53,221 bases of DNA from Hydrurus foetidus (GCA_900617105.1 UYFQ01000007.1:1-53221), one strand, 5' to 3'. Shown: positions 19,354 to 46,685, numbered from the stretch's first letter. Numbers and translations are program-made. The notes: a model not told the origin generated them from the letters alone.

Positions 19354-20331
19354 TTGCCTTCAAACTTGAATTCCATCGGCGCACGTCCCTCTCGCTTTCG
19401 CCGCGAGAGGGTGTTGATCGTCGGCTGTGGTGATGTGGGGCAGCGTACTTTGAGCGCGTTGGTGGGTCGTGTTCATGTACTGGCACTGACCTCTACAACC
19501 GCGAGGGTGGCCGATTTAAGGACGCTTGGCGTCACGCCGCTGCTGGGCAATTTAGACCAGCCCCAGACCTTGGCACGACTGGCGGGCATCGCCCACCGGG
19601 TGCTGCATTTGGCACCACCAGCATCAGCATCCTCGGCGGGGTCGCAGGGCGTGGATTCGCGCACGGCATCCTTGTTGCGGGTATTACGCCAACGCGCTGT
19701 GCCTTCGATGGTGGTGTACGGCTCCACCAGCGGTGTATATGGCGATTGCGGTGGTGAAATCGTGTCAGAAATAAGAGCACCTAACGCCCATACAGCAAGG
19801 GCAGAGAGGCGAATGGATGCTGAAAGCCGGTTGCGCCAGTTTGGCCGGGCCACGTCAGCGCGTGTCAGCATCCTGCGCATCCCTGGCATCTACGCTCCGA
19901 ACCGCGCTGAGGGGATGCCTTTGGGCCGTTTACGACTGTGTACCCCTGTGCTCGACGCTGCCGATGACGTGTATACCAACCACATCCACGCCGACGACTT
20001 GGCCCGTGCTTGCGTGGCGGCGCTGTGGCGTGGCAAGCCGCAGCGGGTGGTCAATATCAACGATGACACGCAGCTTAAGATGGGGGATTATTTTGATGTG
20101 GCAGCGGACATGTACGGCTTAGCACGTCCCCCTCGGGTATCGAGAGCTGAGGCGACTGTGCAATTGTCACCCTTGCGCCTGAGCTTCATGAGCGAATCAC
20201 GTCGCATGGACAACAACCGCATGAAGCGCGAATTGCGTTTGCAGTTGCACTACCCTACAGTGCATACAGGGCTGTTGGTAAAAACCTTACCTCAGAGTTT
20301 GTCTTATACAACTCGGCTAAACTCAAGTTAG
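19354..20331 (+). CDS. NAD-dependent epimerase/dehydratase (SDR)
   Basis: GCGDVG, STSGVYGD, NHIHADDLA, SFMSESRR; TTG start inferred. Confidence 0.85.
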   Translation: MPSNLNSIGARPSRFRRERVLIVGCGDVGQRTLSALVGRVHVLALTSTTARVADLRTLGVTPLLGNLDQPQTLARLAGIAHRVLHLAPPASASSAGSQGVDSRTASLLRVLRQRAVPSMVVYGSTSGVYGDCGGEIVSEIRAPNAHTARAERRMDAESRLRQFGRATSARVSILRIPGIYAPNRAEGMPLGRLRLCTPVLDAADDVYTNHIHADDLARACVAALWRGKPQRVVNINDDTQLKMGDYFDVAADMYGLARPPRVSRAEATVQLSPLRLSFMSESRRMDNNRMKRELRLQLHYPTVHTGLLVKTLPQSLSYTTRLNSS

Positions 20332-23659: not shown

Positions 23660-24538
23660 TCAGAGGGGCAGCGTTTTGAGGTATTCCCTGAACGATGGCC
23701 CTACCTCAGCATGCTCCAGTGCCAGCTCTACCGTTGCTTGCAAGAAGCCTTCTTTGCTACCGCAATCGTAGCGCTTGCCTTTGTACTGGAAGGCGTAAAC
23801 GGCTTCTTCCTTCAGTAAATTAGAAATCCCGTCTGTCAACTGAATTTCGCCGCCCGCGCCTTTGGGTTGATTGCGAATTTTGTCGAAAATACCAGGCGTC
23901 AAAATGTAACGGCCCGCCACCGCCATGCGTGACGGTGCCGCTTCAGGGGCTGGCTTTTCAACAATTTCTGTCACTTGCATGATGCCTGAGCTGCTCATTT
24001 CTCCCGCCACAATGCCGTAGCGCTTGGTGTGCTCCAAGGGGACTTCTTGTACCGCCAAGATAGAGCGTCCCAGGCGTTCAAACTGCTCTGCCATTTGTGC
24101 CATGATGGGGGGGGTGCCCACCATCAAATCGTCTGCCAAGAGCACCGCAAACGGCTCATTGCCCACCAAATGCTCGGCGCACAAGACGGCGTGACCCAAG
24201 CCCAGCATCTTGGGCTGACGCACAAACGCACAGTTCATCCCTTTGGGCATCACCGAGCGCACCACCTCAATCAGAGCCGTTTTGTTGGCGTTGACCAGCT
24301 CATGCTCTAGCTCGAAAGCCACGTCAAAATGGTCTTCAATCGTGCGCTTGCTGCGCCCTGTCACGAAAATCATCTGCTGAATGCCCGCTTCCCAGGCTTC
24401 TTCCACGGCGTATTGAATCAACGGCTTGTCCACCACCGACAGCATCTCTTTTGGGCTGGCTTTGGTGGCTGGCAAAAACCGTGTGCCCAAACCGGCTACG
24501 GGAAAAACAGCTTTGTTGACGCGCTTAACTTGTTTCAT
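23660..24538 (-). CDS. galU: UTP--glucose-1-phosphate uridylyltransferase
   Basis: [35 protein letters not shown]. Confidence 0.95.
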
Positions 24539-24654: not shown

Positions 24655-27612
24655 TTACGCCAAACGTGTGAACTGTTCCTTGATTTTTTCCAGCGTGGCT
24701 GAAAAATCAGCCATCCGTTTGCGCTCCAAATCAATCACCGCAGGGGGCGCTTTGGCGACGAAAGCCTCATTTGACAGCTTGCCCGTGGTCTTGGCGATTT
24801 CGCCCTCTAAGCGGGCCATCTCTTTGGAGAGGCGTGCTTTTTCGGCGGCCACATCGATTTCCATGTGCAGGCAAATACGCAGCGCAGCGTCGCCAGAACC
24901 CACCACAGCTACCGGTGCGGCCTGGGCTGCGGCCTGCCATTCAGCCACGTCGGCAAACACCTTGACTTCATTCAGCTTGGCCAAGGACTTCAGCACGGCG
25001 GCGGATGCGGTCAAAAACTCGGCCTCAGCCGCATTGCCAGCCACCGCGTACAACGGTAAACGGGTAGCGGGCGACACGTTCATTTCGCCGCGCAGGTTGC
25101 GGCACACGTCCACCAGTTGCTTGAGCTTGCCCACATGGGCGATAGCCGCTTCGTCGATTTTGTTGGGCTGGCTTTGAGGGTAAGGAGCGATGCTGACCGA
25201 TTCCCCTGCAATGCCCGCCACCGGTGCCACTTTTTGCCAGAGTTCTTCCGTGATGAATGGGATCACGGGATGCGCCAAGCGCAAAATTGCCTCCAACGTG
25301 CGGATCAGTGTGCGGCGGGTGGCCCGCTGTTGGGCTGCGTCTCCGGTCTGGATTTGCACTTTGGCGATTTCCAGATACCAGTCGCAGAACTCGTTCCACA
25401 CAAAGTCGTACAGCGTGTTCGCCACGTTGTCCAAGCGGTAATCGGCAAAGCCTTTTGCCACATCTGCTTCCACTTTTTGTAGCACCGAGCTGATCCAGCG
25501 GTCAGCTTGGCTGAAATTCATGTAGCCATGCGCCACTCCACCCGGCTGGCATTCGGCTTTGGTGTGCGCCATCAGCCCGCAGTCTTGCCCCTCACAGTTC
25601 ATCAGCACAAAGCGCGTGGCGTTCCAAAGCTTGTTGCAAAAATTGCGATAGCCCTCGCAACGCTTGCTATCAAAATTGATGCTGCGACCCAGGCTGGCCA
25701 AGGCCGCGAAGGTGAAGCGCAGAGCGTCCGCACCGTAGGCAGGGATGCCCTCGGGGAATTCTTTCTCGGTGGCTTTGCGCACCTGGGGCGCGGTCTCGGG
25801 TTTGCGCAGACCTGTGGTGCGCTTGTCCAGCAAGGGGCTAAGGGTGATGCCGTCGATCAAATCCACCGGGTCGAGCACATTGCCCTCCGATTTGCTCATC
25901 TTTTTGCCCTGTGCATCGCGCACCAGACCGTGGATGTAAACATGCTTGAACGGCACGCGCCCCGTGAAATGCGTGGTCAGCATGATCATCCGGGCCACCC
26001 AGAAGAAAATGATGTCGTAGCCCGTCACCAACACGCTGCTGGGCAGGTACAGGTCGTAATCCTCAGTTTTCTCGGGCCAGCCCATTGTTGAGAAGGGAAC
26101 CAACGCAGACGAATACCAGGTATCCAGCACATCATCATCGCGCCGCAAAGGCCCGGTATATCCAGCTTTTAGCGCTTTCTCGCTTGCCTCATCAGCGTTG
26201 CGTGCTACAAAAACTGAACCATCTTCACCGTACCAAGCCGGGATTTGATGCCCCCACCACAGTTGGCGGCTGATGCACCAGTCTTGGATGTTGTTCATCC
26301 ACTGGTCATAGGTGTTCACCCAGTTTTCGGGCACAAAGCGCACTTCGCCGGACTTCACCGCGTCAATCGCTTTTTGCGCGATGCTCTTTCCCGTGGGGTC
26401 AGACTCGCTCACCTTGTTCACTGCCATGAACCACTGGTCGGTCAACATCGGTTCCACGACCTGACCCGTGCGCGTACACACCGGCACCATGTTTTTATGC
26501 GGCACCGCCTTTTGCAGGAAACCCTGTGCCTCCAGGTCTTTCAACACCGCTTTGCGGCAGTCGTAGCGGTCAAGACCCCGGTAGTTTGCGGGGCCGTTCT
26601 CGTTGATCTTCGCGTCCAGCGTGAAGATGGTGATGAGCGGCAGACCGTGGCGCTGCGAGCAGGCGTAGTCGTTGAAGTCATGCGCGCCGGTGATCTTCAC
26701 GCAGCCCGAGCCGAACGCGATGTCCACAAAATCATCCGCAATGATGGGGATGCTGCGCCCGCACAGCGGCAAATCGACCCTTTTGCCCAGCAGATGCTTG
26801 TAGCGCTCATCCTCCGGGTGAACGCACAGCGCACCGTCCGCCAGCATCGTTTCAGGCCGGGTCGTTGCGATGTGCATGCCGCGCATCGGCGTGCCGTCAG
26901 CGGCGGTTTGCGGGCCATCGGTGAACGGGTACTCGATGTGCCACATGAAGCTGTTGCGCTCTTCGTTTTCCACCTCCAGATCGCTCACCGCGCTTTGCAG
27001 CACAGGGTCCCAGTTCACCAGCCGCTTGCCCCGGTAAATCAGACCTTGGTCAAACAGTTGAACAAAAGTCTCGGTCACGGTGTTGGACAGCTTGTCGTCC
27101 ATCGTGAAATACTCGCGGCTCCAGTCCACGCTGGCCCCCACGCGGCGCATCTGGTTAGAAATCGTGTTGCCCGACTTCTCTTTCCATTCCCACACCTTGG
27201 ACACGAAATTCTTGCGCGACACGTCCGGCGTAGGCCCCATGTCATGGCGGCTGATGCCTTGCTCTTGCAACTGGCGCTCCACCACAATCTGCGTGGCAAT
27301 CCCCGCATGGTCCATCCCCGGAATCCACGCCGTGTTGAAGCCACTCATGCGGTGGTAGCGCGTCAAGCTGTCCATGATGGTCTGGTTGAACGCATGGCCC
27401 ATGTGCAGCGTGCCCGTCACATTGGGGGGCGGCAGCTGAATGCTGAACGCAGGCGCATCCGCCTGTGGCACCTTCGTTCCCCGAAACCCCGCCTCGGCAT
27501 ACCCGCGCTTTTCCCACTCCGGCCCCCACTGGGCTTCGAGCGCGGCGGGCTCGAAGGATTTAGAGAGGCTGTTCAGGCCGGGTTGTGCGGGCGTTGTAGG
27601 GGTTTCGGACAT
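24655..27612 (-). CDS. valS: Valine--tRNA ligase
   Basis: [31 protein letters not shown]-terminal coiled coil. Confidence 0.97.
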
Positions 27613-27868: not shown

Positions 27869-28114
27869 ATGAGTGCCTACGCTTTACGCTTACCCGAATC
27901 CCTCAAGCTTGCTGCCAAACGCATTGCAGCTCAAGACGACACCACCATGAACCAATTTTTCGTGGTTGCCATCGCCGAAAAAATCAGCGCTATGGAAACG
28001 GCCAAGTTTTTTGAAAACCGTGGGGCACTTGCGAATCCTCAAGCCGCCGATGCCGCCTGGGCCAAGGTCGCCCGCAGCACCGCACCTGTTGCAGGTGATG
28101 CGTGGCTGGGGTGA
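27869..28114 (+). CDS. Ribbon-helix-helix antitoxin-like protein (HicB-like annotation class)
   Basis: YALRLPESLK..MNQFFVVAIAEKIS RHH pattern; GGAG RBS. Confidence 0.72.
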   Translation: MSAYALRLPESLKLAAKRIAAQDDTTMNQFFVVAIAEKISAMETAKFFENRGALANPQAADAAWAKVARSTAPVAGDAWLG

Positions 28115-28137
28115 GTGCTCTTGAATCTATAGCTTCT
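28115..28137 (+). repeat. Truncated copy of the ~65-bp palindromic repeat
   Basis: GTGCTCTTGAATCTATAGCTTCT matches the first arm of the other copies. Confidence 0.55.
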
Positions 28138-28139
28138 GA

Positions 28140-28844
28140 CTACTGGGAGCGAAACACAAAAGTTCGATGAAAGTCCATAAACGGTTTATGTTGACTCGTA
28201 AGAGTAACCTGCATGCCAATCTCGATACCCAGTTGCTGCGGGTCTGATAGTAGTGGTGCCAGCGAAATCAGACCGTCTTCGCGAAAGGTGATTAATCCTG
28301 CATCGAACGCTTTATCGAGGTTTGGTGTCAGAAGTAGTCCGTTAAATGGATTCAGTCGCTCCGCATTGGTGCATGCCCGCCAAGGCTTGATATGTGAGGC
28401 AACAAGAAGGCCCATGTCGTTGTAGCCTGTAACTGCGCAAGCCTTCCAATAGGCTATGAGCTTCTGACGGAACGTGCCTTGACCGATGCGGCATTTGACG
28501 AGGTCGCGTCGCTCGGTTGGGCTGACGACTGAGTCGTCAAGGATCGCATCTATATCTGTCTCAACATCACCCGCATAGCCTTCAGCAAGGTACTCGGCGA
28601 ACTTGACGAGTGCGCTGCTGTACATGTTATGACCGCGTTCATTGCGCTCCTGAAAAATGGTGAGTAGTCGAATCTTCGATACAACATCGTTGTACGTTGT
28701 GATGCTTGTTAGAGCCGTGAGTGGCCCAGCCATGATGTTGCTCTCAATGGCCCACTGTGAAAGTGGCCCTTGAATGGCACCGGCGTATTTTTCTGCTGAG
28801 GATGAACTTAGTCCTCGGTGCAGCATCCATTCTTTAAAGATCAT
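28140..28844 (-). CDS. HNH endonuclease (putative restriction/defence nuclease)
   Basis: RIGQGTFR, CAVTG, ASHIKPW, NGLLL..NLDKAFD; visibly more AT-rich than neighbours. Confidence 0.85.
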   Translation of the reverse strand: MIFKEWMLHRGLSSSSAEKYAGAIQGPLSQWAIESNIMAGPLTALTSITTYNDVVSKIRLLTIFQERNERGHNMYSSALVKFAEYLAEGYAGDVETDIDAILDDSVVSPTERRDLVKCRIGQGTFRQKLIAYWKACAVTGYNDMGLLVASHIKPWRACTNAERLNPFNGLLLTPNLDKAFDAGLITFREDGLISLAPLLSDPQQLGIEIGMQVTLTSQHKPFMDFHRTFVFRSQ

Positions 28845-28910
28845 ATTTCGTCATTCCTGGAGTCGTGGGGTTGGATAAATGCACATTGACAAGGATCAGA
28901 TCTTGCATTT

Positions 28911-28976
28911 ATTCTCAGCTGAATCAGCCGCTACCGCATACGTAGAAAGCACTACAAGCTATCACTTAGATAGCAC
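28911..28976 (-). repeat. Full intergenic copy of the ~65-bp palindromic repeat
   Basis: GCTATC-TAAGT-GATAGC hairpin followed by a second imperfect hairpin; aligns with copies at 34.5, 35.7 and 38.5 kb. Confidence 0.7.
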
Positions 28977-30299
28977 TCACCCCCGCAGCGCCTTCTTTCT
29001 CACCAGCCCGATATTCCCCAGCAAGGAATATTGCTCATCCGTGTACGACAGCGGCACGTTGATTTTGCTGACCACTTGGGCCAAGTCGTCCAGCTCTTTC
29101 ACCAGTGCCGTTTGCTCGCTCGGCATCTCGTACAGGCGGCGTTCGATGTCGCGCAGTTGGGCGTACCAGCGGAACACGCGGGAGCGGATGCGGAATTGGT
29201 AGAGCGGGGGGACAATTTTGCTCAAGGGCAGCACCACGGCGACGATGATGCCCAAAGCGAGCCACATGCGTTCAATCAAATTGGCCAGCCAAAACGGCAG
29301 GTAATGCTGTAGCAGAGGCGAGCCGTTGCGGATAAATCGGTCGGCCTCGGGGGCCAGGGGGAATTCACCCAGCGTGGCTTTGGGGAAGTCACGAGCGCGG
29401 TTGAACCAGCCGGGGCCGCCGTGCAGTTTTTTAGCGGCTTGCGAGAACAGTTGCAGCAAAGCGGGGTGTGTGCCGTCCCGCGCCAACAAGGCCGTGGTGG
29501 AGGCGACTAAGCGCACATCCTGAGGCGGCGTGTTGCCTGCCAAGTCCACCACGCCACGCGGTAACACCACGGGGGTTAAAAACTCAAAGCGGCGCGAATA
29601 GGCTTCGCTCTGCGGAAAGTCCATCAGTTTGATGCCGGGGGTTTGCAGCAGCATTTGCACCATCAGCGCTTCAGGAGCCGAGGCGAAGACGATCACGTCA
29701 ATCTCGCCATTCAAAAAAGCCACCGTGGCCGGGGTTTGCGCCAGCTGGCTTAGTGTGATGGTTTTGGTGTCGATGCGGTTCACGTCGAACAAACGCGCCA
29801 TCAAATTCGGCACCCCGCTGCCCACCGTGCCCACGTTCACGCGCAAGCCTTGCAGTTGCGACAGCATGCCCAGCGTGGCCTCGGGGTTCAGCTTTTTGGC
29901 GGCGGCCTCTTGGTAAAACAACCAGACGGGTTCGACGAACAGGCTGCCCAGGGATTCCAGCGCGTAGTCGTCTGCCACGCTGGCCTCCAGGCTGCCGCCT
30001 TGCACAAAGGCAATGTCGGCTTTGCCGTCGCGCAGCAGTTCCAGGTTGGCCGATGAACCTTCGCTGGGCAGCAGCGTGACCTCAATGCCGTTGGCTTTGA
30101 GTGCTTTGGCGTAGCGCTTGCCAAACTCGTCATACGCACTCTGCGCGGGGCCGGTGGCAAGCGTGACGTGTTTCGGTGGCGTGGGGTCTAGCCACCAGTA
30201 GGCCAGGGCCAGCAGGGCTATGGCGAGCAGGGCGAGGGGCCCGGCGGAAACCAGCAGGTCTCGGACGGAGACGACGGTGTAGCGGATGGCTTGGGTCAT
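28977..30299 (-). CDS. TAXI-family solute-binding-like protein with N- and C-terminal membrane segments
   Basis: LATG, SEGSSANL, AFVQGG, EPVWLF, GSG motifs; hydrophobic segments at both ends. Confidence 0.78.
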   Translation of the reverse strand: MTQAIRYTVVSVRDLLVSAGPLALLAIALLALAYWWLDPTPPKHVTLATGPAQSAYDEFGKRYAKALKANGIEVTLLPSEGSSANLELLRDGKADIAFVQGGSLEASVADDYALESLGSLFVEPVWLFYQEAAAKKLNPEATLGMLSQLQGLRVNVGTVGSGVPNLMARLFDVNRIDTKTITLSQLAQTPATVAFLNGEIDVIVFASAPEALMVQMLLQTPGIKLMDFPQSEAYSRRFEFLTPVVLPRGVVDLAGNTPPQDVRLVASTTALLARDGTHPALLQLFSQAAKKLHGGPGWFNRARDFPKATLGEFPLAPEADRFIRNGSPLLQHYLPFWLANLIERMWLALGIIVAVVLPLSKIVPPLYQFRIRSRVFRWYAQLRDIERRLYEMPSEQTALVKELDDLAQVVSKINVPLSYTDEQYSLLGNIGLVRKKALRG

Positions 30300-30409
30300 G
30301 TTGTGCAGCATGGGGTTGTGACCTTTGCGTTTTACACGGTTTTAAAGAAAAGGCGGTTTCAAGCCTCACGCCCCGCACCGCTTGCACGGGGAGGCGACCT
30401 TGTGCTGTT

Positions 30410-32719
30410 TTAGACGCTCAGCCGTTGATCCGTCCAGTGCGCGTGGATGAACTGCTCAAAATCGGCTGCGGGCAGTGGGCGGCCAAACAAATAGCCCTGG
30501 TAGGCATCGCAGCCTTGTGCAGCCAAAAATTCACGTTGCGCTTGTGTTTCCACGCCCTCGGCAATCACCGTTAGCCCCAGGCTGTGGCCCAGGGTGATGA
30601 CGGTACGGGCGATGGCCGCGTCGTTCGGGTCGAACGTCAGATCGCGCACAAAGGATTGGTCAATTTTGAGCTGGTCAAGTGGCAAGCGCTTCAGGTAGCT
30701 GAGCGACGAGTAGCCGGTGCCGAAATCATCCAGCGAAAACCCCACGCCGCTGGCTTTGAGTGCCGTCATTTTGGCGATAGTTTCCTCCACATCGTTGACC
30801 AACATGCTTTCGGTCAGCTCCAGTTTCAGGCGGTGCGGATTGGCCCCGCTGCGTGTCAGTACGCCCAGCACAAAGGCCACAAAATCAGGTTGACGAAACT
30901 GCCGCGCACTCACATTGACGGCCAGCGTGAGGTGACGGGCTGCGGGGTCGCTGGCCCACATCACCAAACGGGCGCACGCCGTTTCCAGTACCCACTCGCC
31001 TAATGGGATGATGAGGCCAGTATCCTCCGCCAAGGGGATGAAGTCGGCTGGCGAGACCATGCCGCGCTGCGGCTGTTTCCAGCGCAGCAGCACTTCCGCG
31101 CCGATGGTGTGCCCCTCGCGGTTGATTTGCCCTTGGTAGTGCAGCACAAACTCGTCTTTTTGGATGCCCAGCCGAAGGTCGTTTTCCAGCCCCACCCGTG
31201 CGCTGACCACGGCTTGCATCGCCGGGTCAAAAAAGCGCAGCGTGTTGCGCCCAGCTGTTTTGGACTGGTACATGGCCAAGTCGGCTTGCTTCAGCAAATC
31301 TTCCATCGTGTCTTGGTGCCCGCTGTACAGCGTCACGCCGATGCTGGGGGTGATGTTCACATCGTGTTCCAGCAAGCGGTAGGGCTGGTTGATGGCCGCC
31401 AGCACCTTTTCGCCCACCATGCGGGCCTGAGCCAAGGCCTCGGGGGTGTCTTTGCTGAGAGATTCCAGCATCACCACAAATTCATCGCCACCGAGCCGGG
31501 CCACTGTGTCGCCTTCACGCATGCAGGCGCTTAAGCGCCGGCCAACTTGCTCTAGCAACAGATCCCCTACGCCGTGGCCCAAGGTGTCGTTCAAAGTTTT
31601 GAAGTTGTCCAAATCAATGAACTGCAACGCCCCGTGCTGGCCGCTGCGCGCGCTCAACGCCAGCGCTTGTTGCAGGCGGTCTTGTAGCAAGCGGCGGTTG
31701 GGCAGTTTTGTCAGGGGGTCGTAAAAGGCCAGTTGCTTGACCTCGGTCAGCGTGGCTTGCAGCTCATTTTGTGTGCTGACCATCTCGTGTGTACGGCGGT
31801 CTACCAACAATTCCAAGCTGACTTTATGTTGCTTGAGTGTGAGCAGCAAGTGGGTGGCGTAGGTTAATACCAAGCTGAAAATCAAGCCCAGTGCCCCTTC
31901 TTGTAGCAGGTCGGCCAGGTTGCGCCAACCCGTGGTGGGCGTGACTTCCAACGTCCAGGTGCTGTTGGGCACGATCAGTTGCTGGCTCACGGGGGATGTG
32001 CCTAACGGAGCCACCGATTCAGCTATCACCTGTTTACGACGGGTAACAGGGTCAGTGCGCCACAGCTGGTAACTCAGACCTTGTTCTTCGAGTTGCGCCA
32101 AGCGAACGCCTTCAATCGCTTCAGGAAAATACAAAACAGCAGAGACAAATCCCCAAAAAACGTGTTGACTCTCAGGGGGGGCGTTGTGTAAAAAAATCGG
32201 CAAACGTGCTACCAACCCCATCCGTCCTTGCACCAATTTCAGCGGCCCTGCCAGCGTCAGTTGCTCAGTGTCCTTGGCTAAAAAGGCTTCGCGGCTTTGC
32301 AAGGGGTCTTTCAGTTGGTCGAATCCAACTACACGCTCATTGCCTTGCAAAGGAAAAACCTTCTCGGCCACGCCACCCGGCGAGAGGCTCATCATTTTGA
32401 TGCTGGGGTACAGGGGCAAAATTTGCTCCATCACGCCCTCAAAGTCTGGCATCTTGCCCTTGCTTTGGCGCACCATAGCCCCTACCGCGTGGGTGACCGA
32501 CAGCGCGTTCGCGATGGTGGTTTGAATCGCGTAGGTTTTATCGCTTGCTAAGGCTCCCAAACGAATGCGCTCAGCTTGCATTTGCTGTTGCTCTAGCCGC
32601 CAAATGAAGGTGCTGACCATCAGCATCGAGGTGATAAACACCAGCAGTACGATGGTTATTTCCCGCCGAGCGAGGGTGAATATAAAGTCTGTTCGGATTT
32701 TTTGAAACATCATGGCCAC
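30410..32719 (-). CDS. CHASE-like sensor / GGDEF / EAL c-di-GMP enzyme
   Basis: TM-periplasmic (LAGPLKLVQG)-TM, GGDEF, EVL, DDFGTGYSSL, AEGVE. Confidence 0.9.
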   Translation of the reverse strand: MAMMFQKIRTDFIFTLARREITIVLLVFITSMLMVSTFIWRLEQQQMQAERIRLGALASDKTYAIQTTIANALSVTHAVGAMVRQSKGKMPDFEGVMEQILPLYPSIKMMSLSPGGVAEKVFPLQGNERVVGFDQLKDPLQSREAFLAKDTEQLTLAGPLKLVQGRMGLVARLPIFLHNAPPESQHVFWGFVSAVLYFPEAIEGVRLAQLEEQGLSYQLWRTDPVTRRKQVIAESVAPLGTSPVSQQLIVPNSTWTLEVTPTTGWRNLADLLQEGALGLIFSLVLTYATHLLLTLKQHKVSLELLVDRRTHEMVSTQNELQATLTEVKQLAFYDPLTKLPNRRLLQDRLQQALALSARSGQHGALQFIDLDNFKTLNDTLGHGVGDLLLEQVGRRLSACMREGDTVARLGGDEFVVMLESLSKDTPEALAQARMVGEKVLAAINQPYRLLEHDVNITPSIGVTLYSGHQDTMEDLLKQADLAMYQSKTAGRNTLRFFDPAMQAVVSARVGLENDLRLGIQKDEFVLHYQGQINREGHTIGAEVLLRWKQPQRGMVSPADFIPLAEDTGLIIPLGEWVLETACARLVMWASDPAARHLTLAVNVSARQFRQPDFVAFVLGVLTRSGANPHRLKLELTESMLVNDVEETIAKMTALKASGVGFSLDDFGTGYSSLSYLKRLPLDQLKIDQSFVRDLTFDPNDAAIARTVITLGHSLGLTVIAEGVETQAQREFLAAQGCDAYQGYLFGRPLPAADFEQFIHAHWTDQRLSV

Positions 32720-32728
32720 TCTTATGGG

Positions 32729-33787
32729 CTAAACGCCGGAGCGTGGTGTCTTGTCCGTATTGACCCTGTTGCAGATATCGGCAGCCGCAGGCCAGCTGTG
32801 TTCGCCGTAGCTGACGCACCGTGCCGCCCACACCGCCTGCACCACGGCCCGTGCGGTGACTTCAGCGGCCAGCGTACTCAGCACCATCATGCCCATGGTC
32901 TTGCCCGATTGGCCTGTGCCCAGCGCAAACAACGTATCGCCATCCGACATCGTATGCACAGGGTTGATGCTGCGTGCCAAGCCATCATGGGCGACTTGCG
33001 CCAACCGGTGCGCCTGCGCCTTGGTCAGTATTGCATCGGTAGCGATCACGCCCAGCGTGGTGTTGGTGCCTGCCAGCAAGGGCTTGGGCGCATCGCCCGC
33101 CAAAATGGCATCGCGGATGTTCAGCAGAGACAAGCCATCCACGGTGCGAGCCCCCGCAATCACGTCGCCGGTGCGCGGGTCAACCACATCACCGAGCGCA
33201 TTCACGGCGACGATGGCCCCCACCGTCACACCGTCCAGCGTGACAGACGCACTGCCGATACCGCCTTTCATAGCCCGCCCAATGCCAAACAGTTTGCCCA
33301 CCAGCGCACCCGCACCCGCGCCCACATTGCCCTGCGCGGGTACAGCGCGGCTGGCCGCCATGCAGGCTTGGTAGCCCGCTTGCGCGTCAGGCCGAATGCG
33401 GTAATCGCCCACAGGCAGATCGAACAATACCGCCGCAGGCACGATGGGCACCAGCCCATAGTTCACCGACAGGCCGACGCCCTGTTCCTCCAGCCACCGC
33501 ATCACCCCGCCTGCAGCGTCCAAGCCCCAAGCGCTGCCACCGGCGAGCGTGATGGCGTGAACGCGCTCCACCAGATTGCTGGGGTGCAGTAAATCTGTTT
33601 CTCGCGTACCGGGCGCCGCGCCACGCACGTCCACGCCTGCCACCGCGCCTTCGCGGGCGATGATGACGGTGCAGCCCGTCGGGCGGCGTGGGTCGGTGAA
33701 GTGGCCGACTTCGATGCCCAGCACTTGGGTGATCGCCCCAGGGTCTGGGGTGATGAGGGGGGTGTGTGAGGCTTGGTTTGTATTCAC
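32729..33787 (-). CDS. P1/S58 family peptidase (Asn-Thr cleavage type)
   Basis: DVRGAAPGTRET, GGSAWGL, KGGIGSAS, NTT, HTMSDGD. Confidence 0.87.
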   Translation of the reverse strand: MNTNQASHTPLITPDPGAITQVLGIEVGHFTDPRRPTGCTVIIAREGAVAGVDVRGAAPGTRETDLLHPSNLVERVHAITLAGGSAWGLDAAGGVMRWLEEQGVGLSVNYGLVPIVPAAVLFDLPVGDYRIRPDAQAGYQACMAASRAVPAQGNVGAGAGALVGKLFGIGRAMKGGIGSASVTLDGVTVGAIVAVNALGDVVDPRTGDVIAGARTVDGLSLLNIRDAILAGDAPKPLLAGTNTTLGVIATDAILTKAQAHRLAQVAHDGLARSINPVHTMSDGDTLFALGTGQSGKTMGMMVLSTLAAEVTARAVVQAVWAARCVSYGEHSWPAAADICNRVNTDKTPRSGV

Positions 33788-33847
33788 AGCCCGATTATGG
33801 GATATGGGTTGAATGAAACTAGGGTAAGGGTATTTATACCCGGCCCT

Positions 33848-34255
33848 TCAACTGCTGAGCCAAGGCTGCACAAACGCGAACCAGCCTCCCACCAGGTACA
33901 CCAGCACACTGAAACCGTACACCGCTGCCGACACTTTGCGGGTGCGCAGGCAGGCGTGGCGCAACGCGGGGTCTGTCGGGCAGGGTGCGCTGCGGCCCGA
34001 CCATTGCAGGGTGCCTGCTGCTGCCAGCATCAGGCCCGCAAAGCCAAAGAGGCCTTCTTTGTGCTCGCTCAGCCAGACCAGTTGCGGCACTGCAGCCACC
34101 AGAGACGACAGAGCCGCCCCAGCACCCAGGGCCACCAGCAGGGCGGGCAGGGCGCAGCAGACCAAGGTGCTGCTGCTGGCGAACAGGCTGGCAACGGACG
34201 ACCACAGGTTGCTACGGCCGAGCGAGCTGCCGTCGCCCATGTCACCGGGTTTCAT
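33848..34255 (-). CDS. MerT-like three-TM metal transporter
   Basis: CC pair in TM1 (LVCCALP), CP..C in loop, three hydrophobic segments. Confidence 0.65.
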   Translation of the reverse strand: MKPGDMGDGSSLGRSNLWSSVASLFASSSTLVCCALPALLVALGAGAALSSLVAAVPQLVWLSEHKEGLFGFAGLMLAAAGTLQWSGRSAPCPTDPALRHACLRTRKVSAAVYGFSVLVYLVGGWFAFVQPWLSS

Positions 34256-34596
34256 CGTTTGGCCTTGGTATCGGCTTTGATTTCAGCCACCGAGCGCGGC
34301 ACGTTTTCTAGCTTTACCACGTCATAACCGGCTTCGGTGATCTCGGTGCTGATCGTTTGGGTGTCCAGCTTTTGACCGTCTTTGGGTTCCACCGCAACGA
34401 CTTTGTTCTTCAAATCGACAAACACCGCTTTGGTGGCAGGCAGGGCGGACAGGCGTTTTTCGATGCCTTGGGCGCAGAAGGCGCAAACCATGCCGTTCAC
34501 GGTGACGCGCACCGATTCAGCCGCATATGCAGAAGAAAAAAGACCATTGTTGCATGCCAGTAGGGCTGTAACAGCTATGAATTTGATAGTTTTCAT
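34252..34596 (-). CDS. Exported heavy-metal-associated (HMA, MerP-like) protein
   Basis: Signal peptide ending AYA, GMVCAFC, AGY. Confidence 0.85.
   Translation of the reverse strand: MKTIKFIAVTALLACNNGLFSSAYAAESVRVTVNGMVCAFCAQGIEKRLSALPATKAVFVDLKNKVVAVEPKDGQKLDTQTISTEITEAGYDVVKLENVPRSVAEIKADTKAKR
34531..34592 (-). repeat. In-frame copy of the ~65-bp repeat encoding the signal peptide
   Basis: CTATCAAATTCATAGCTGTTACAGC..ATGC aligns in register with the intergenic copy. Confidence 0.6.
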
Positions 34597-34639
34597 GAGG
34601 TTATCCAAAAGAGAGAAAAGAAAGAAAAAAGGAATGGGG

Positions 34640-35332
34640 CTAAAAGATGTACATCAGGTTGAAGCGCACTTGGGCTGATCGGCTGATGCCCAGCTCGATA
34701 AAGTAGCGCTGGTGAATCAAGCGCAGCATGGGGGTGATTTCGGTTTTGCCCGACAAACCCCGCATGCGCCTGAGTTCGACGATCACCCAGGGCTGGGTTT
34801 CGTCGTAGTCCGCCTCAAAGAGCGAGAAACCAGCCCGCACCGAGGAGTAGTCGTGATTTACTTCTTTGGCGCGGTAAAGCCGAGCGTTGGCCGAAAAGTA
34901 GACCCGGGTGGTTTCATAGTCAAGCTGCATGCCTGGCGTAAGCAAAAGCCGGCTGCTTGTCAGGTTATTGCCTGTGAGCGTGCCCATGCCACCCGTTAGC
35001 CACAGGTTGGCTTGGGCCTCGGGCATGTTCCAGCGTGAGAGCAGTCGGGTAACGTTCACCTCCACGGCTTCGCGGGTGAGGCGTTTGTCGTCTGAGCGCA
35101 TGGTGACACCGCCCACGCCGATGGCATCGCGGGCGGTGAGGGCGTAGTTCACCCAGGTTTCTTGCCAGTTTGGGCTGAAGTCGCCCATCACCATCGTGCT
35201 GCCTTTGAAGCCCATAGGCCCGGCAATCGCTTGGGTGCTGAAGGCAAAGCAGGTGCTGAGGCCGATAGCCCAAGCTGTAGCCCAGGCAGCCCGAATGGGG
35301 TGCGGGCGCTGTGAGGCAATGTGGTTTTTCAT
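34640..35332 (-). CDS. Hypothetical exported protein, probable outer-membrane beta-barrel
   Basis: Signal peptide (AIA), alternating amphipathic strands, C-terminal FNLMYIF. Confidence 0.6.
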   Translation of the reverse strand: MKNHIASQRPHPIRAAWATAWAIGLSTCFAFSTQAIAGPMGFKGSTMVMGDFSPNWQETWVNYALTARDAIGVGGVTMRSDDKRLTREAVEVNVTRLLSRWNMPEAQANLWLTGGMGTLTGNNLTSSRLLLTPGMQLDYETTRVYFSANARLYRAKEVNHDYSSVRAGFSLFEADYDETQPWVIVELRRMRGLSGKTEITPMLRLIHQRYFIELGISRSAQVRFNLMYIF

Positions 35333-35421
35333 GACCATCTTTCCGTGCGAACCCGTGCCGATGACGGGGAACTGACCAACCTGTCCAGCGGGTGTGCTGG
35401 ACGCTTTTTAAAGGGGATTGG

Positions 35422-35844
35422 TTACGCGTTCGGGGGCTTCAAGCCAGCTTGTATGTCGGCACTGGCAAAAGCCACTTGGGTGTGAGGAGCCGCAGGGGGA
35501 TGCGGGGCCAGGGTGCGCTGTACAAGCGTTGAGGCTGGCAATGCCGCTGACACACACAGCTCGCAAGTGTCACAGCCGGTACACGGTGCGCTTTCGGGCG
35601 TATCCGACATTGGCATGGTGCAGCCCGGTGGCATGGCAGGGGTGGATGTGGATGAAGATATGGATGAAAAATAGGCTTCAGTGCTTGCTGTATGGGCGGT
35701 AGAAGCTATCAATTTTGATGGTGAACTGACCGATGCCATCATCCTGCCCCCCATCCCTACCGCCATGGCATCGCCCACCCATGCGCGCAGGGGCAGCAGG
35801 GCGACCAAGGCAATCAGCAAAAGGGGGCGTAAGAAGCGCAGCAT
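35422..35844 (-). CDS. Cys-rich leader-type protein (DUF2946/CutF/CruR-like)
   Basis: Signal-like LLPLRAWVGDAMA, CxxCxxCxxC, FASA..GLKPP C-terminus; paralog of 41838-42194. Confidence 0.72.
   Translation of the reverse strand: MLRFLRPLLLIALVALLPLRAWVGDAMAVGMGGRMMASVSSPSKLIASTAHTASTEAYFSSISSSTSTPAMPPGCTMPMSDTPESAPCTGCDTCELCVSAALPASTLVQRTLAPHPPAAPHTQVAFASADIQAGLKPPNA
35661..35722 (-). repeat. In-frame internal copy of the ~65-bp repeat
   Basis: CCATCAAAATTGATAGCTTCTACCGC..AAGC aligns with the other copies. Confidence 0.65.
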
Positions 35845-35935
35845 GGTCGTGAGAGTACGAATGCGCCCCCAGAGTTCCCGTCCATGAGAGCGTGGTGTCC
35901 GATAATTGAAAATCCATTCTCCGTGCCCATCCTTT

Positions 35936-37069
35936 ATGCCTTTGACCCCCTCTCTCAAGCCGCTGCGCATCGTCCCCCAGTCGAGTGCGCAGCCCACGCT
36001 CTCCAAAGCCCAGCAGGCGTTCAACACCCTGGTCAAAAAGATAGAAATCCGCCGCCATGAGCTGGCGCAGTGGCAGGCCACGGTAGACCAGTACCAGCAA
36101 AAGCTGGCCAGCAGTTACCGTCCCTTGATGACCCGCTTTAACCAGCAAAAGACCGCGTTCGTGTTGGCCTTAGATCAAGCTTTGGGCCACATGGAACAGC
36201 GCAAGGGGCTGACCCGCACCGAGCGCACGGTGGTGGAAGACATCATTTGCAATCTCGCGGAGCAATTGCTGTCGGGGCCAGAGACGCAAGACGATGCCGT
36301 CAAAGAACTCTACAACCGCTACCACGAGGTGGACTTCGACACCCAAGAGGCGCAGGCGGTCAGCGCCTTCAAAGCGGGCCTGGAGCGCGATCTGGGTGTT
36401 GAGCTGGACGACTGGCCCGAAGACGCAACCCCCGCCGAGGTGTTGGCGCAATTGCAAGCCAAAATGACCGGGCTAGAGGACGAGCAGCGCCCCCCACCCA
36501 AAAAGAAAACCGCCAAGCAGCTCGCCCGCGAAGCCAATCAAAAAGCCGAAGAAGACCAGACCAGCCTTTCCATCCGCGAGGTCTACCGCAAACTGGCCAG
36601 CGCCCTGCACCCTGACCGTGAACCTGACGAGGCTGAGCGCGAGCGCAAAACCGGGTTGATGCAGCGTGTCAACCAAGCCTACGCCAAGAAAGATTTGCTC
36701 AAACTGCTGGAGTTGCAACTGGAGCTGGAGCACATCGACGAACACACCATCGCGGGCCTGTCGGAAGACCGCCTCAAGCATTACAGCAAGGTATTGAAAG
36801 AGCAAGTGAAAGAGCTGGAGCAAGAAATCGCCCAGCTGGAGCATCCGCTGAAAGCCCAGTTTCATGTCCACCCGTACCAAACGCTGTCGTACAAGAGCGT
36901 GATGCCCCTGATGATGCGCGACATGGCCGATTTACAGCGCCACATCAACCAAATTAAGCAGGATATGCGGGTGTTGGGCGACCCCCCCGCCTTCAAGGTG
37001 TGGATCAAGGCCTACAAGCGCGAGCTGAAGGCCCACCAAGCAGAGCGCGATGAGTTTGATTTTTTCTGA
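35936..37069 (+). CDS. Coiled-coil protein with internal J-domain
   Basis: IREVYRKLASALHPDR..MQRVNQAY. Confidence 0.82.
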   Translation: MPLTPSLKPLRIVPQSSAQPTLSKAQQAFNTLVKKIEIRRHELAQWQATVDQYQQKLASSYRPLMTRFNQQKTAFVLALDQALGHMEQRKGLTRTERTVVEDIICNLAEQLLSGPETQDDAVKELYNRYHEVDFDTQEAQAVSAFKAGLERDLGVELDDWPEDATPAEVLAQLQAKMTGLEDEQRPPPKKKTAKQLAREANQKAEEDQTSLSIREVYRKLASALHPDREPDEAERERKTGLMQRVNQAYAKKDLLKLLELQLELEHIDEHTIAGLSEDRLKHYSKVLKEQVKELEQEIAQLEHPLKAQFHVHPYQTLSYKSVMPLMMRDMADLQRHINQIKQDMRVLGDPPAFKVWIKAYKRELKAHQAERDEFDFF

Positions 37070-37088
37070 AGCGGCTTGGAGAACCAAG

Positions 37089-37379
37089 CTACTTCGTTGG
37101 AGTTGCTTGCAACGTCAGGATGGTGATGGCTCCATCTACGTTTTCTGCGGTGAACGCCACGCTGTCCCCGGCTTTTAAACCTTCAAGCAGCTTGGTTTCT
37201 TTTACACGGAACACCATCGTCATGCCTGGCATGTCCAGGTTTTTGATGGGGCTGTGTTTGAGGGTTATTTTGCCGTTTTCGGTGTCAATTTTGCGCACTA
37301 CACCGGTAGTCATGTCTGCAGTTTGAGCCATCGCAGCGCTGCTCAGCAGCAGGGTAAGACTTGCAATCCAGAGTTTCAT
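37089..37379 (-). CDS. CusF-like periplasmic copper-binding protein
   Basis: Signal peptide, ITLKH..NLDMPGMTMVF. Confidence 0.88.
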   Translation of the reverse strand: MKLWIASLTLLLSSAAMAQTADMTTGVVRKIDTENGKITLKHSPIKNLDMPGMTMVFRVKETKLLEGLKAGDSVAFTAENVDGAITILTLQATPTK

Positions 37380-37415
37380 GGTGTTTCCTTGGGTGGGTTG
37401 GGGGACGAACAGCGC

Positions 37416-37910
37416 TTATTTGGCAGAAACGGTGATCGTTCCGCGCATGCCGGCTTGGTAGTGCCCGGCGATCAGGCACGCAAAGTCGAACTGGCCGGGT
37501 TTGTTGAACGTCCAGATAATTTCGCCTGATTTAGCGGGGGCGACATGGGCCATATAGGGTTCTTCATGTTCCATCGTGGGGAACTTGACCATCAAAGCGG
37601 CGTGCTCTTCGTTTTCTTTGGTGGTGCCAATCACGAACTCATGCATCACCGCGCCGTCGTTTTTGACGGTAAATTTCACCGTTTCGCCCAGCTTTACCTT
37701 GATTTGGTTCGGTGTGAAGCGCATGGCATCGCTCATGCTGATGGCGACGGTGCGTTTGACGGCTTTGGCATCACCTGCAATCCCCCAGTCTTTTTGCTCT
37801 TTTTTGACAGGGCCAGTTTTGGCGGCATGGGTTTCGTCGCCGTGAGGAAAAGCGAATGTGCTGACACTGCTTATGACGATAGCGAGAAGGGTTGTGCTGA
37901 GGTTATTCAT
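37416..37910 (-). CDS. Periplasmic cupredoxin (CopI/plastocyanin-like)
   Basis: MRFTP, HEFVIG, ACLIAGHYQAGM type-1 Cu ligands. Confidence 0.88.
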   Translation of the reverse strand: MNNLSTTLLAIVISSVSTFAFPHGDETHAAKTGPVKKEQKDWGIAGDAKAVKRTVAISMSDAMRFTPNQIKVKLGETVKFTVKNDGAVMHEFVIGTTKENEEHAALMVKFPTMEHEEPYMAHVAPAKSGEIIWTFNKPGQFDFACLIAGHYQAGMRGTITVSAK

Positions 37911-37939
37911 GTCGATTCCTTAAAAAATGGCTGCTATGG

Positions 37940-38524
37940 TTACTGAGACGATGTTGGGGTGTCGCTGTAGCCACGTAAGACGCTGTACTGCGTAATCTGC
38001 TGTTGGGTGAGCAATTGGGCTTGTTTTAAATGGGTTTCTAAGTGCGCGTTGCGTACTTTCGCCTGTATTTCACCTGTGTGTTGCGTCAGCAAGGTCAATC
38101 GGGTCGTATCAATATGGTGATGGGCAAAAGCTTGATCCAGTTGTCGCTCTGCTTCAACCCATTGCTTGCCGAGTGCGCGAACTTCTGCTTTGTGCTGTGC
38201 CAGAAGCTGCGCGGTGGCTTCGCGCTGTGCTGGTGAGAGGTGCAAGGCATCAGCCAGTTCCAGGGTGTGCATGGGGCCAGGGTAGCCATTGAGTTCAGCT
38301 GCTTTGGCCAGTTCCATACCTTTGCCCGCCAGCATGTCGTTGACTTGGGTGTCTGATAAGGCTTTGATGACGCGCGTTTGTTGTCCTGCATAAGCGTTCG
38401 TTGTCTTCGCTGTATGTTCAAGATCATGCCGATGTTCAAGGGGCACCGATTTTTGGCTGAATGCACTTGCACCGCTTACCAACAGGGCGGTAGCAGCTAT
38501 AAATTTAAGAGTGATTGAACGCAT
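37940..38524 (-). CDS. Spy/CpxP-like periplasmic heavy-metal-associated protein
   Basis: Signal peptide, GMELAKAAELNGYPGP, LTQQQ, helical. Confidence 0.68.
   Translation of the reverse strand: MRSITLKFIAATALLVSGASAFSQKSVPLEHRHDLEHTAKTTNAYAGQQTRVIKALSDTQVNDMLAGKGMELAKAAELNGYPGPMHTLELADALHLSPAQREATAQLLAQHKAEVRALGKQWVEAERQLDQAFAHHHIDTTRLTLLTQHTGEIQAKVRNAHLETHLKQAQLLTQQQITQYSVLRGYSDTPTSSQ
38451..38514 (-). repeat. In-frame copy of the ~65-bp repeat encoding the signal peptide
   Basis: CTCTTAAATTTATAGCTGCTACCGC-N11-GCGGT. Confidence 0.65.
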
Positions 38525-41744: not shown

Positions 41745-41838
41745 ATCTCCAGAAGGAAAGAACAGCAGCGAGGGCTGCGGAGCTGGTGCTGGTAGCTTGA
41801 TTGCCGTCAAATTACAGACGGAATCAGAGCCTGGAGAT
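41745..41838 (-). promoter_or_regulatory. SD-sequestering multibranch RNA structure
   Basis: ATCTCCAG at the leader stop pairs with CTGGAGAT (the RBS); two internal hairpins. Confidence 0.6.
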
Positions 41839-42194
41839 CACAGAAGCGGTGGTTTGAAGCCTTGGGCAGGCTCTGCGCTGGCAAAGTGCGTGGGCACCGG
41901 GGTGATGCGTGCCGCAGGCAGCGCGGGCAGCAGGGGGGTAAATTCAGTCACAGCCAAACCCAGCAGATGGCAGAGTTGGCACTGGGTGCAGCTTACGGTG
42001 GTGTCGGTTGCTTTGTTGGCATCGTCCGTGTTGGCTGCGTCAACGCCGGCCATCATCTCGGCGCAATGGGCTGAAGCGGCAGCGGCGGTGGATGCCACAC
42101 CGGCGGTAGCGCTTACAGGCATCGCCATCGAGTCACCCACCCAAGCACGCAGGGGCAGCAGGGCGATCAGCAGGATGAGGAAGAAACGGCGCAT
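41838..42194 (-). CDS. Cys-rich leader-type protein (DUF2946/CutF/CruR-like)
   Basis: LLPLRAWVGDSMA, CTQCQLCH, FASA..GFKPP. Confidence 0.75.
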   Translation of the reverse strand: MRRFFLILLIALLPLRAWVGDSMAMPVSATAGVASTAAAASAHCAEMMAGVDAANTDDANKATDTTVSCTQCQLCHLLGLAVTEFTPLLPALPAARITPVPTHFASAEPAQGFKPPLL

Positions 42195-42928: not shown

Positions 42929-42952
42929 AGTGTGTGCCTTTTTGTGAATCTG

Positions 42953-42967
42953 TGTGTACACATTTTA
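42953..42967 (-). promoter_or_regulatory. TA operator palindrome next to -10 box
   Basis: TGTGTACACA palindrome abutting TAAAAT; the core GTGTACAC matches the P1 Phd box. Confidence 0.6.
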
Positions 42968-42997
42968 GAGCGTTTTAACGCCCGTACTCCGCATCCT

Positions 42998-45570: not shown

Positions 45571-46685
45571 TGAATGCCAGAGTTGAAATTGCCTACGAAC
45601 AGCCTGCCTGCGCTACCCGTAGCGCCTGGGCGCGCATCCCCGTAGAGCCGACCCAGGCTGAGCGTGCGGCGCTGAAAGACAAAATCCGCGACCTCCTCAA
45701 AGCCCGCAATGCGGTGATGGTGTCGCACTACTACGTCCACCCCGATTTGCAGGATTTGGCCGAAGAAACAGGTGGCTTGGTCAGCGATTCGCTGGAAATG
45801 GCCCGCTTTGGCCGCGATCATGCAGCGCAGACATTGGTGGTTTCTGGCGTGCGCTTCATGGGTGAGACGGCCAAAATCCTCTCCCCCGAAAAGCGCGTGC
45901 TGATGCCCGATCTGGACGCGACCTGCTCACTCGATCTGGGCTGCCCGCTGGACGAATTCACCGCCTTTTGCGATGCCCACCCTGACCGCACCGTGGTGGT
46001 CTACGCCAACACCAGCGCGGCCGTCAAAGCGCGGGCCGATTGGCTGGTGACTTCCGGCTGTGCGCTTGACGTGGTGCGGGCTCTGAAAGACCAGGGCCAC
46101 AAAATCCTCTGGGCACCTGATAAACACCTGGGCGGCTACATTCAGCGCGAAACCGGCGCGGACATGCTGATGTGGCAAGGCAGCTGCATCGTGCATGACG
46201 AGTTCAAAGCCTTTGAACTGGAGATGCTCAAAAAAGACCACCCCGGTGCCAAGGTGCTGGTACACCCCGAGTCGCCTGCCGATGTGGTGGCGCTGGCCGA
46301 TGCTGTAGGGTCAACATCGGCCATTCTGCATGCCGCGCGAGCGATGGATGCTACAACTTTCATAGTCGCCACCGACAGCGGCATGATGCACAAGCTGCGC
46401 CATCAGAACCCCGGCAAGCTGTTCATTGAAGCCCCCACCGCAGGCACCAGCGCCACCTGCAAGAGCTGCGCCCAATGCCCCTGGATGGCGATGAACGGGC
46501 TGGCAGGCGTGGCGCAGGTGCTTGAAATGGCCCCGGCATCAGGGCCGGGTTTGAACGAGGTTCACGTTGACCCCGGCCTGGGCTTGCGGGCACGGGTGCC
46601 GATTGACCGGATGCTGGCTTTTACAGCGGCTTTGAAAGCCGGACAGTTGGTGAGCGGGCTGGTGCCCCGGATTGGGGTGGCGTAG
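45567..46685 (+). CDS. nadA: Quinolinate synthase
   Basis: SHYY, RFMGET, TCSL, YANT, CIVH, HPE, CPWM. Confidence 0.95.

Follow-up and report, generated by a model that had tools for sequence, protein, structure and literature searches.

The stretch analysed here, referred to as the window, is the whole 53,221-nt sequence UYFQ01000007.1:1-53221 of assembly GCA_900617105.1 (Hydrurus foetidus). It harbors copies of a 66-bp DNA motif between and inside genes, among them genes of a copper-resistance cluster, in which the carriers of copies B, C, and D are found together with CusF, a cupredoxin, a multicopper oxidase, and an outer-membrane efflux protein (Table 1). A sequence-only reading had described a palindromic repeat of about 65 bp that occurs five times and appears to be recruited in frame into exported proteins. 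Positions and strands of these copies (A to D and the half copy E) proved correct, as did their gap-free alignment from the ATAGCT core, the use of ATA GCT as Ile-Ala codons in B, C, and D, and the TAA and TGA stops in the Ile-Ala frame of copy A. The repeat is real, but five was too low a count and the unit is 66 bp long: a matrix from the closest relative of the window (genome G104) detects seven full copies and one half copy, three of the full copies being new, plus a borderline one. The motif is written over protein sequence, and it supplies some genes with their leaders, as predicted from sequence features.

Table 1. Motif copies and related features of the window. The last two columns give matrix scores in bits (matrices of G104 and of Polaromonas aquatica).
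Feature	Position	Strand	Context	G104	P. aquatica
Copy F	19760..19825	+	sense frame, inside NAD-dependent epimerase-like gene (19297-20331); no codons added	32.8	17.9
Possible worn copy	23754..23819	+	antisense in galU-like gene; borderline (null maximum 12.7)	13.9	
Copy G	26157..26222	-	sense frame inside valS	25.8	
81-aa gene and HNH nuclease gene	27869..28844	.	between valS and copy A; both genes lacking from the corresponding G104 site		
Half copy E, core only	28115..28138	+	past the stop of the 81-aa gene; faces copy A across the HNH gene		
Copy A	28911..28976	-	non-coding; begins at the stop codon of an NMT1/TAXI-type gene (28977-30311)	36.4	32.9
Copy B	34527..34592	-	codons 2-23 of HMA-domain protein (34252-34596, PF00403); predicted signal peptide	37.4	16.2
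Copy C	35658..35723	-	low-complexity linker of small DUF2946/CopL-like protein (35422-35844)	34.1	25.8
CusF gene	37089..37379	-	ordinary leader; PF11604		
Copy D	38449..38514	-	codons 4-25 of Spy/CpxP-like metal-resistance protein (37940-38524); predicted signal peptide	40.8	32.4
Motif-free paralog of C gene	41838..42194	-	118 aa vs 140 aa; weak DUF2946 match		
Copy H	46303..46368	-	antisense frame inside nadA (45567-46685, +)	21.7	

Copies A to D are identical to each other at 27-35 of 60 positions, ungapped, and with leave-one-out matrices the held-out copy ranks right after its three training copies among ~106,000 window positions. Two further matrices were applied. That of Polaromonas aquatica (G001) consists of 66 copies called intergenic and is independent of the window, and that of G104 was built with the stretches orthologous to the window excluded; on the reversed window their maxima are 4.1 and 12.7 bits, respectively. 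Half copy E scores 19.9-21.7 bits over the first 24 columns, and the reversed window has no equal site. A valS stretch at 25670 that resembles the motif was discarded as ordinary conserved sequence (3.8 bits). G104 and the window share 96% in one protein and 79-89% in DNA, and the sites of copies A (34.5 bits) and F (31.8 bits) are present there as well. A motif within 160 nt of the stop of the NMT1/TAXI-type gene was found in 3/27 scorable ortholog loci (30 taken). The closest relatives of the D protein belong to Polaromonas, the window itself being placed outside this genus (65% nucleotide identity, one marker), and a metagenome scan yielded no D relative closer than 60%.

The motif is ungapped and consists of a GCTAY-N7-RTAGC core and a one-sided arm with a GCGC-like box at positions 23-26, a GGGC-like box at 38-41, and A/T tracts that recur about every 10-11 bp (9-11, 21-22, 30-33, 52-54, and 62-64). 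Possible resemblances are to sequences of the IHF, Fis, and FNR type, to LysR T-N11-A boxes, and to relaxase nick sites. A strict pattern of 26 letters matches 239 times in P. aquatica, 133 times in P. eurypsychrophila (G004), 3 times in Polaromonas JS666 (G003), and 4 times in LjRoot131 (G002), with no match of reversed-pattern controls in these four genomes and 0-2 in a wider range. Its distribution is patchy: it is present in 85/251 Comamonadaceae genomes, with 0 to 465 copies per genome, and in 80/91 Polaromonas genomes (a tally that includes G276 with a single match), where counts are mostly 0-6 or >80. The strict pattern undercounts genomes with a dialect of their own, e.g. G104 with 24 strict matches vs 53 matrix matches in 263 kb; P. 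aquatica and P. eurypsychrophila differ significantly at four positions. JS666 is poor under both matrices (4-5 matches in 480 kb), and 4-kb loci gave 0 matches in 15 poor genomes vs 14 in 15 rich ones.

In 800 kb of P. aquatica, 111 matrix copies were found (~0.14 per kb; null maximum 4.4 bits), on both strands (64 and 47), and 66 of them are non-coding, which bears out the idea of a dispersed family with many non-coding members. The non-coding calls come from a hexamer gene finder that misses some leaders, so that a few of the training copies are coding. The non-coding copies lie near gene ends, 21/66 in convergent spacers (60/447 of all spacers) and 4/66 in divergent ones (91/447 of all spacers). 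Among 2.9 million viral contigs, 38 loci carry a longer pattern, and two N-terminal copies were seen. The repeat is thus a real family, without a name in the literature searched; neither the complete unit nor a coding role for it was found described there, most subscription papers lying outside the coverage, and under the terms tried the family is not mentioned in the accessible parts of PMC11893778 and of the preprint 10.64898/2026.09.22.753630.

A third of the P. aquatica copies (37/111) lie fully within called genes, as do six in the window. Of these 37, 14 are read in the sense Ile-Ala frame, 16 in its mirror antisense frame, and seven in the other four, so the suspected reading-frame bias exists, with 30/37 copies in two of six frames. 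Stops nearly always close two frames and leave four open in 20-40 of the 66 non-coding copies; they consequently account for just part of the bias. Synonymous shuffles of copies picked by score never reached the scores of B, C, and D with window codon use (0/5000) and did so in 25, 1, and 0 of 5000 cases with uniform use, which is the outcome that the sequence-only reading had predicted for genuine copies. For copy F, 0/5000 shuffles match the score, and in P. aquatica the shuffles were outscored by 36/36 testable copies with genome codon use and by 35 with uniform use. Coding copies match the motif at the DNA level beyond the needs of their peptides.

The main open frame encodes a peptide of roughly T/A-I/L-K-x-I-A-A-C-A-x-x-x-x-A-x-G-x-F. 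Since this yields Lys followed by small hydrophobic residues, a signal peptide is a likely cheap place for a near-perfect match. The motif spans of B and D are predicted to encode signal peptides: inspected by eye, both leaders, also in orthologs, display a Lys/basic N-region, a hydrophobic core, and an A-x-A-like cleavage site, and export of both proteins is predicted from these features and the domain type. The leaders of B and D are made of the motif; C is situated in a linker behind an N-terminal hydrophobic segment, outside any leader, and F, G, and H lie in enzymes. The D protein matches PF13801 and PF07813 slightly under the cut-off. The C protein has no Pfam match; its family name is taken from the paralog at 41838-42194 (PF11162 below cut-off), and the label CopL is our presumption.

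Among the best 80 of 198 D ortholog loci, 30 carry the motif (19-49 bits), always N-terminally and in the Ile-Ala frame, one is borderline, and 49 score <=-9. Relatives from other families without the motif possess ordinary leader-like N-termini (by eye). A quick tree computed from the mature part places every motif row in a single Comamonadaceae group of 40 rows (support 89), 8 of which are motif-free; this amounts to six gains or losses, at least two of them forced. The leaders of JS666, LjRoot131, and P. aquatica, Polaromonas without the motif here, resemble motif leaders that have worn away at unchanged length. Codon choice follows the motif: among 31 D motif leaders, rows picked by score, Ile is ATA in 28, Lys is AAA in 30, and Ala is GCT in 25, vs 13/140, 56/198, and 79/812 in the mature parts. 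The B motif is present in 15/24 Polaromonas ortholog loci, namely 15/21 from genomes with at least 19 strict matches and 0/3 from poor ones, counts that are not independent because the genomes are related.

Motif leaders were found in sampled loci of six unrelated exported-protein families and, in addition, in CusF of G104 (L440:13697-14044, G104:C11), which bears a D-type motif leader (35.1 bits); a direction of change relative to the window is not implied. The mature part of D and the cupredoxin gene are missing from G104. Besides the Spy-like and HMA proteins, these families are, as we take them from sequence, cupredoxin fusions, a YcnI-like protein, an MltB-like protein, and an ABC binding protein. 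Cupredoxin-like proteins headed by a motif leader, 302-346 aa long, are encoded at L044:9476, L047:9476, and L015:1223, those at L044 and L047 fused to a Spy-like domain.

Comparison with motif-poor relatives addresses how the motif came to lie in these genes. After a flank-identity filter, sites orthologous to 51/111 P. aquatica copies were available in 480 kb of JS666 and to 22 in 320 kb of P. eurypsychrophila. In JS666 (flanks ~84% identical), the motif is present at 0/24 coding, 2/6 gene-edge, and 0/21 non-coding sites, and 15/24 coding sites align gap-free with 67% identity within the unit. P. eurypsychrophila (flanks ~78%) keeps it at 9/11 coding and 3/7 non-coding sites. JS666 is thus nearer to P. 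aquatica, yet it keeps no coding site, and on a one-gene tree the poor genomes G002, G003, and G286 are nested beside the rich G001 and G314, the rich/poor label changing 3-5 times. Taken together, retention in P. eurypsychrophila, absence from JS666, and the nested poor genomes indicate that these are old sites, which some lineages lost together with the family. In lineages without the family, coding copies and leaders appear to have returned to ordinary codons.

Most coding copies add no length. In KynB, CoaBC, GcvP, the epimerase, NadA, and ValS, alignment to distant PDB homologs leaves gaps of 0-2 residues over the motif: the span of copy F is gap-free vs 3ius and 3gpi, that of copy G shows gaps of 1-2 residues at most vs Thermus ValRS 1gax, and that of copy H differs by 2 residues from archaeal NadA. 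The site of copy F is motif-free and of the same length in 29/29 scorable Polaromonas orthologs (30 taken; scores -29 to -62). As ~15/21 family-typical residues (by eye) survive in it, copy F was not pasted in wholesale; it is a gain specific to its lineage, made in place and sparing most residues typical of the family. The notion that the motif seeds protein sequence applies to the linker of C at most (the motif is present in 4/7 homologous loci found by regular expression); elsewhere it sits on pre-existing sequence of the same length. Since most coding copies add no length and D outgroups already possess leaders, replacement of sequence by the motif outweighs seeding of new sequence. An in-frame copy of 55 bits also lies in the ComEC linker of P. 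aquatica (L089:4625-7156, comEC-like gene), where JS666 is motif-free and 21 nt shorter.

Signs of a folded or mobile element were sought as well. Of the two hairpins proposed as a shared feature, the first is complete in A alone and the second in D alone; folding relative to shuffles gave z -2.2 for A and -0.8 to +1.2 for the others. Pairing in both stems, in two registers, stays at the level expected from independent columns among 196 non-redundant copies, mostly from Polaromonas, so that a hairpin function is not borne out. Rfam 15 recognised a tRNA alone in the window and nothing in 60 kb of P. aquatica with strong copies. The 66 non-coding P. aquatica copies have a mean identity of 53% and a best pair of 79%, with 0/2145 pairs >85% (best pairs 79-85% across three Polaromonas samples), and are therefore judged to be old or independent in origin. 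Similarity in spacer, middle, and tail is not linked among these copies (Mantel p 0.29-0.99), and identical variable loops are in no excess over a first-order Markov null. Long exact runs do exceed a column-shuffle null (52 vs 8, P. aquatica), an excess that uneven copy quality can also yield. Neither shared ends nor a target duplication were seen by eye in 17 aligned shorter orthologous sites, whose gap ends spread from -54 to +115, and the motif information stops at about -1 and +64 with termini that do not match. Lacking near-identical copies, fixed ends, covariation, and a motif-flanked RAYT, the motif for the most part does not behave as the repetitive extragenic palindromic (REP) element or the miniature transposable element with inverted repeats (MITE) it was first taken for, and a MITE mechanism is not supported.

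A cognate transposase of the Y1/RAYT type next to the motif, suggested along with the element, did not turn up: the single Y1/RAYT-like gene per genome is present in 20/20 rich and 20/20 poor genomes, and a motif lies within about 1.5 kb in 1/30 loci. In JS666, this conserved gene is located between copies of a different 20-nt inverted repeat (L101:1411-1430 and 2251-2270), a candidate for its cognate sequence, and a broken Y1 transposase fragment (L106:1430-2100, G005:C32) has two motif copies within ~300 nt downstream. Competence proteins do not separate rich from poor genomes either, with a ComP_DUS-family pilin in 19/20 rich and 20/20 poor genomes (specificity shifts within the pilin would stay hidden), DprA in 40/40 genomes, rich and poor, and ComEC in 5/5. 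In the five genomes examined for further factors, Ssn-type GIY-YIG was discarded (one match each in P. aquatica and G274, in frames of 680-770 aa), tyrosine recombinases (3 in P. aquatica) do not separate rich from poor, reverse transcriptase is absent from P. aquatica and G274, and the H-NS family was not found in motif-rich P. aquatica. The HNH gene of the window has homologs in 14/251 genomes, 13 of which have 0-1 strict matches, and was dismissed. Comparison of 728 P. aquatica genes with 480 kb of JS666 and 320 kb of P. eurypsychrophila, about a tenth of the genomes, gave no DNA-binding candidate. The sole rich-only gene in this tenth is pseudouridine-synthase-like (G001:C1:354054-354647); it is shared with P. 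eurypsychrophila, missing from the syntenic stretch of JS666, and probably unrelated to the motif.

Tentatively, an uptake-sequence-like drive is preferred as an explanation, in which the motif would be a duplex site read by a putative host protein and spread mainly by substitution. The observations behind it are the abundance of the motif, its rigid spacing, the DNA-level match of coding copies, the same length at most coding sites, the species dialects, and sites kept between distant rich species and missing in a nearer poor one; from these we infer a protein reader, duplex recognition, and a molecular drive, by which uptake or recombination would be biased towards better matches. Fixed spacing without covariation or linkage, dialects, gains in place, and lineage-wide loss all fit a duplex site that is read by a protein and favoured at the DNA level, and the motif likely reaches genes mostly by gradual base changes, not by jumping in. 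The host protein would recognise the 66 bp as double-stranded DNA, and a bias at the DNA level would spread the motif by base substitution in the manner of DNA uptake sequences. Matches in coding DNA would thereby come to encode predicted signal peptides and parts of enzymes, the latter without a change in length. The proteins concerned would already have been exported, the motif taking over an existing leader, and a motif leader might be moved as a module to another gene, CusF of G104 being a possible example. Upon loss of the system, leaders and enzyme codons would likely drift back, and non-coding copies would likely be deleted.

Several points weigh against such a drive. Because their copies were picked by score, the synonymous and codon tests are inflated. 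The D leader of P. aquatica, a motif-rich species, scores -17.5. JS666 is at least 30 nt shorter at 4/24 coding and 13/21 non-coding sites, several of the latter by 85-91 nt, and these length differences fit insertion as well as deletion; the linker of C measures 40-45 residues in motif-type homologs vs 21-24 in two motif-free ones. In size and density (66 bp at ~0.14 per kb), the motif is far from uptake cores (9-10 bp at ~0.8). Copies C and F have a 15-nt exact run in common, a possible trace of conversion, and a hairpin is possible in other genera, as the pair GCTTAT(N5)AAGCG of Acidovorax ebreus is self-complementary. The search of seven candidate families and of the neighbouring HNH gene turned up no cognate protein, and since the ComP_DUS pilin, DprA, and ComEC occur alike whether a genome is rich or poor, a link of the motif to competence has nothing to support it.

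An old insertion could account for part of these data: a REP/MITE-like element would have been inserted by an enzyme since lost or unrecognised, short-patch gene conversion would later have homogenised it, and tolerated in-frame copies would have been kept. This is possible though doubtful. The preference of non-coding copies for gene ends and convergent spacers and their scarcity in divergent ones, the shorter non-coding sites of JS666, a C linker that is longer by about one unit, and the run common to C and F all speak for it, but the 17 shorter sites have neither common ends nor a target duplication, the best pairs do not surpass 79-85% identity and lack linkage structure, and Y1/RAYT does not follow the motif. 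Nor do P. aquatica and G274 encode an Ssn-sized GIY-YIG or a reverse transcriptase (P. aquatica has three tyrosine recombinases), and native residues survive within coding copies.

The same preference for convergent gene ends, together with the avoidance of divergent promoters, would also suit direct selection for places where a protein of chromosome organisation or topology binds; every match would then be useful and become fixed even in genes. The dyad core and the A/T tracts ~10-11 bp apart suggest DNA bent on a protein, and the sites are retained for long at orthologous positions and used on both strands. Even so, this explanation is unlikely: no candidate protein was found (a search of P. 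aquatica did not find the H-NS family), whole lineages live without the family, and it is difficult to imagine selection that changes residues of ValS or NadA for the sake of a single site among several hundred. Convergence at the protein level or chance, by which K-x-I-A signal peptides merely look alike and copy A is a coincidence, is scarcely credible. It could draw on the low score of B with the P. aquatica matrix and on the 25 uniform shuffles that reach B; the hundreds of non-coding copies in relatives vs 0-2 in reversed-pattern controls, the rare ATA, GCT, and AAA codons of motif leaders, and the score of B with the matrix of the near relative argue otherwise, and the idea was refuted by the matrix nulls, the synonymous shuffles, and the G104 scores.

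A few further features of the region and of the genomes compared are recorded here. The 15-nt run of C and F (35686-35700 and 19783-19797, approx.) covers a usually variable loop; among relatives' copies such runs are rare (5/6105 pairs reach 15 in P. aquatica), and short-patch conversion or a local dialect are possible sources. Half copy E and copy A resemble each other over ~15-20 nt upstream of the motif, and both begin at a TGA stop. The HNH gene within 27869-28976 has PADLOC matches to HNH/type II restriction. An opposite-strand DnaJ-domain gene (35906-37069), present in G104 as well, interrupts the copper cluster by separating CusF from the C gene, and a PIN_2 toxin gene with a Phd/YefM-like antitoxin gene (42225-42961) adjoins the cluster, where the G104 alignment skips 42232-42998. 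A second repeat family, distinct from the 66-bp motif, is a self-complementary stretch of ~600 bp in P. aquatica (L097:19223-19843, ~339.2-339.8 kb of G001), with dozens of 73-84% matches in LjRoot131 and JS666 and fewer in P. eurypsychrophila and G005; genomes with few copies of the 66-bp motif have it in abundance.

If the uptake-sequence-like reading is true, a non-coding DNA signal would shape protein sequence, unrelated leaders included, across a family of bacteria common in freshwater and soil, codon choice would be set by a DNA motif, and a concrete route for signal-peptide turnover would be at hand. Repeated losses within Polaromonas (G002, G003, and G286 beside G001 and G314; G259/G282; G335/G281) would make the missing protein findable by proteome comparison. 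The boldest version, a signal for uptake or recombination that at 66 bp is several times the length of any known uptake sequence, rewrites housekeeping enzymes in place, repeatedly supplies portable signal peptides, and has its reader revealed by sister losses, is rather improbable. The present analysis adds the comparison of rich with poor sisters, the enzyme copies in the window, the leader swap, and a list of excluded factors.

Parts of the motif may have been seen before. The accessible text of PMC5217627 lists the motif pairs ATAGCT(N22)CAAAAG of Polaromonas naphthalenivorans and GCTTAT(N5)AAGCG of A. ebreus, with 114-125 copies near gene ends, convergent far above divergent, and 4-14% in genes. 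Judged by position, both pairs would match portions of the 66-bp profile; in that text they are given as unrelated fragments, with no full unit, range, frame bias, leaders, lineage loss, or mechanism. The Betaproteobacterial repeat element (BRE; PMC3110155), as far as the available part describes it, likewise occurs in Comamonadaceae and partly inside genes. Unlike the motif, it measures ~90 bp with 69% GC, is unrelated by eye, and is abundant in JS666, which has 3 strict matches; an identity of the two was therefore rejected. With REP/REPIN-RAYT and NTS/SRM-Ssn systems, as outlined in the accessible part of PMC11893778, the motif shares a high, patchy copy number and a position behind genes, and REP/REPIN are also mostly extragenic (66/111 copies for the motif) and enriched in convergent spacers. 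It differs from both in lacking a covarying hairpin, a near-identical master copy, and a flanked RAYT or Ssn gene, and in having far more coding copies; none of six genus or order names occurs in the accessible part of PMC3733652.

Rickettsia palindromic elements are insertions of ~150 bp that lie between genes and in frame within them, encoding a recurring peptide (Ogata et al. 2000, as summarised in PMC10969869; also PMC3184786, both in the parts available). The analogy drawn with them holds in that the motif, too, lies in frame in unrelated genes, and breaks down in that no unit-length peptide is added: at most coding sites the protein gains no residues, with the C linker as the apparent exception, the motif is read in two opposite frames, and no conserved fold was found. 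DNA uptake sequences (USS in Pasteurellaceae and DUS in Neisseria) show frame bias and, according to the accessible part of PMC2817400, arise by mutation and recombination, not by insertion. The motif differs from them in its 66 bp and dyad core vs non-palindromic cores of 9-10 bp, in being about six times sparser, and in that competence genes occur in rich and poor genomes alike. It resembles them in its hundreds of copies on both strands, about a third of them in genes, in its reshaping of proteins, and in the trait that it accumulates in coding DNA without insertion and with frame bias.

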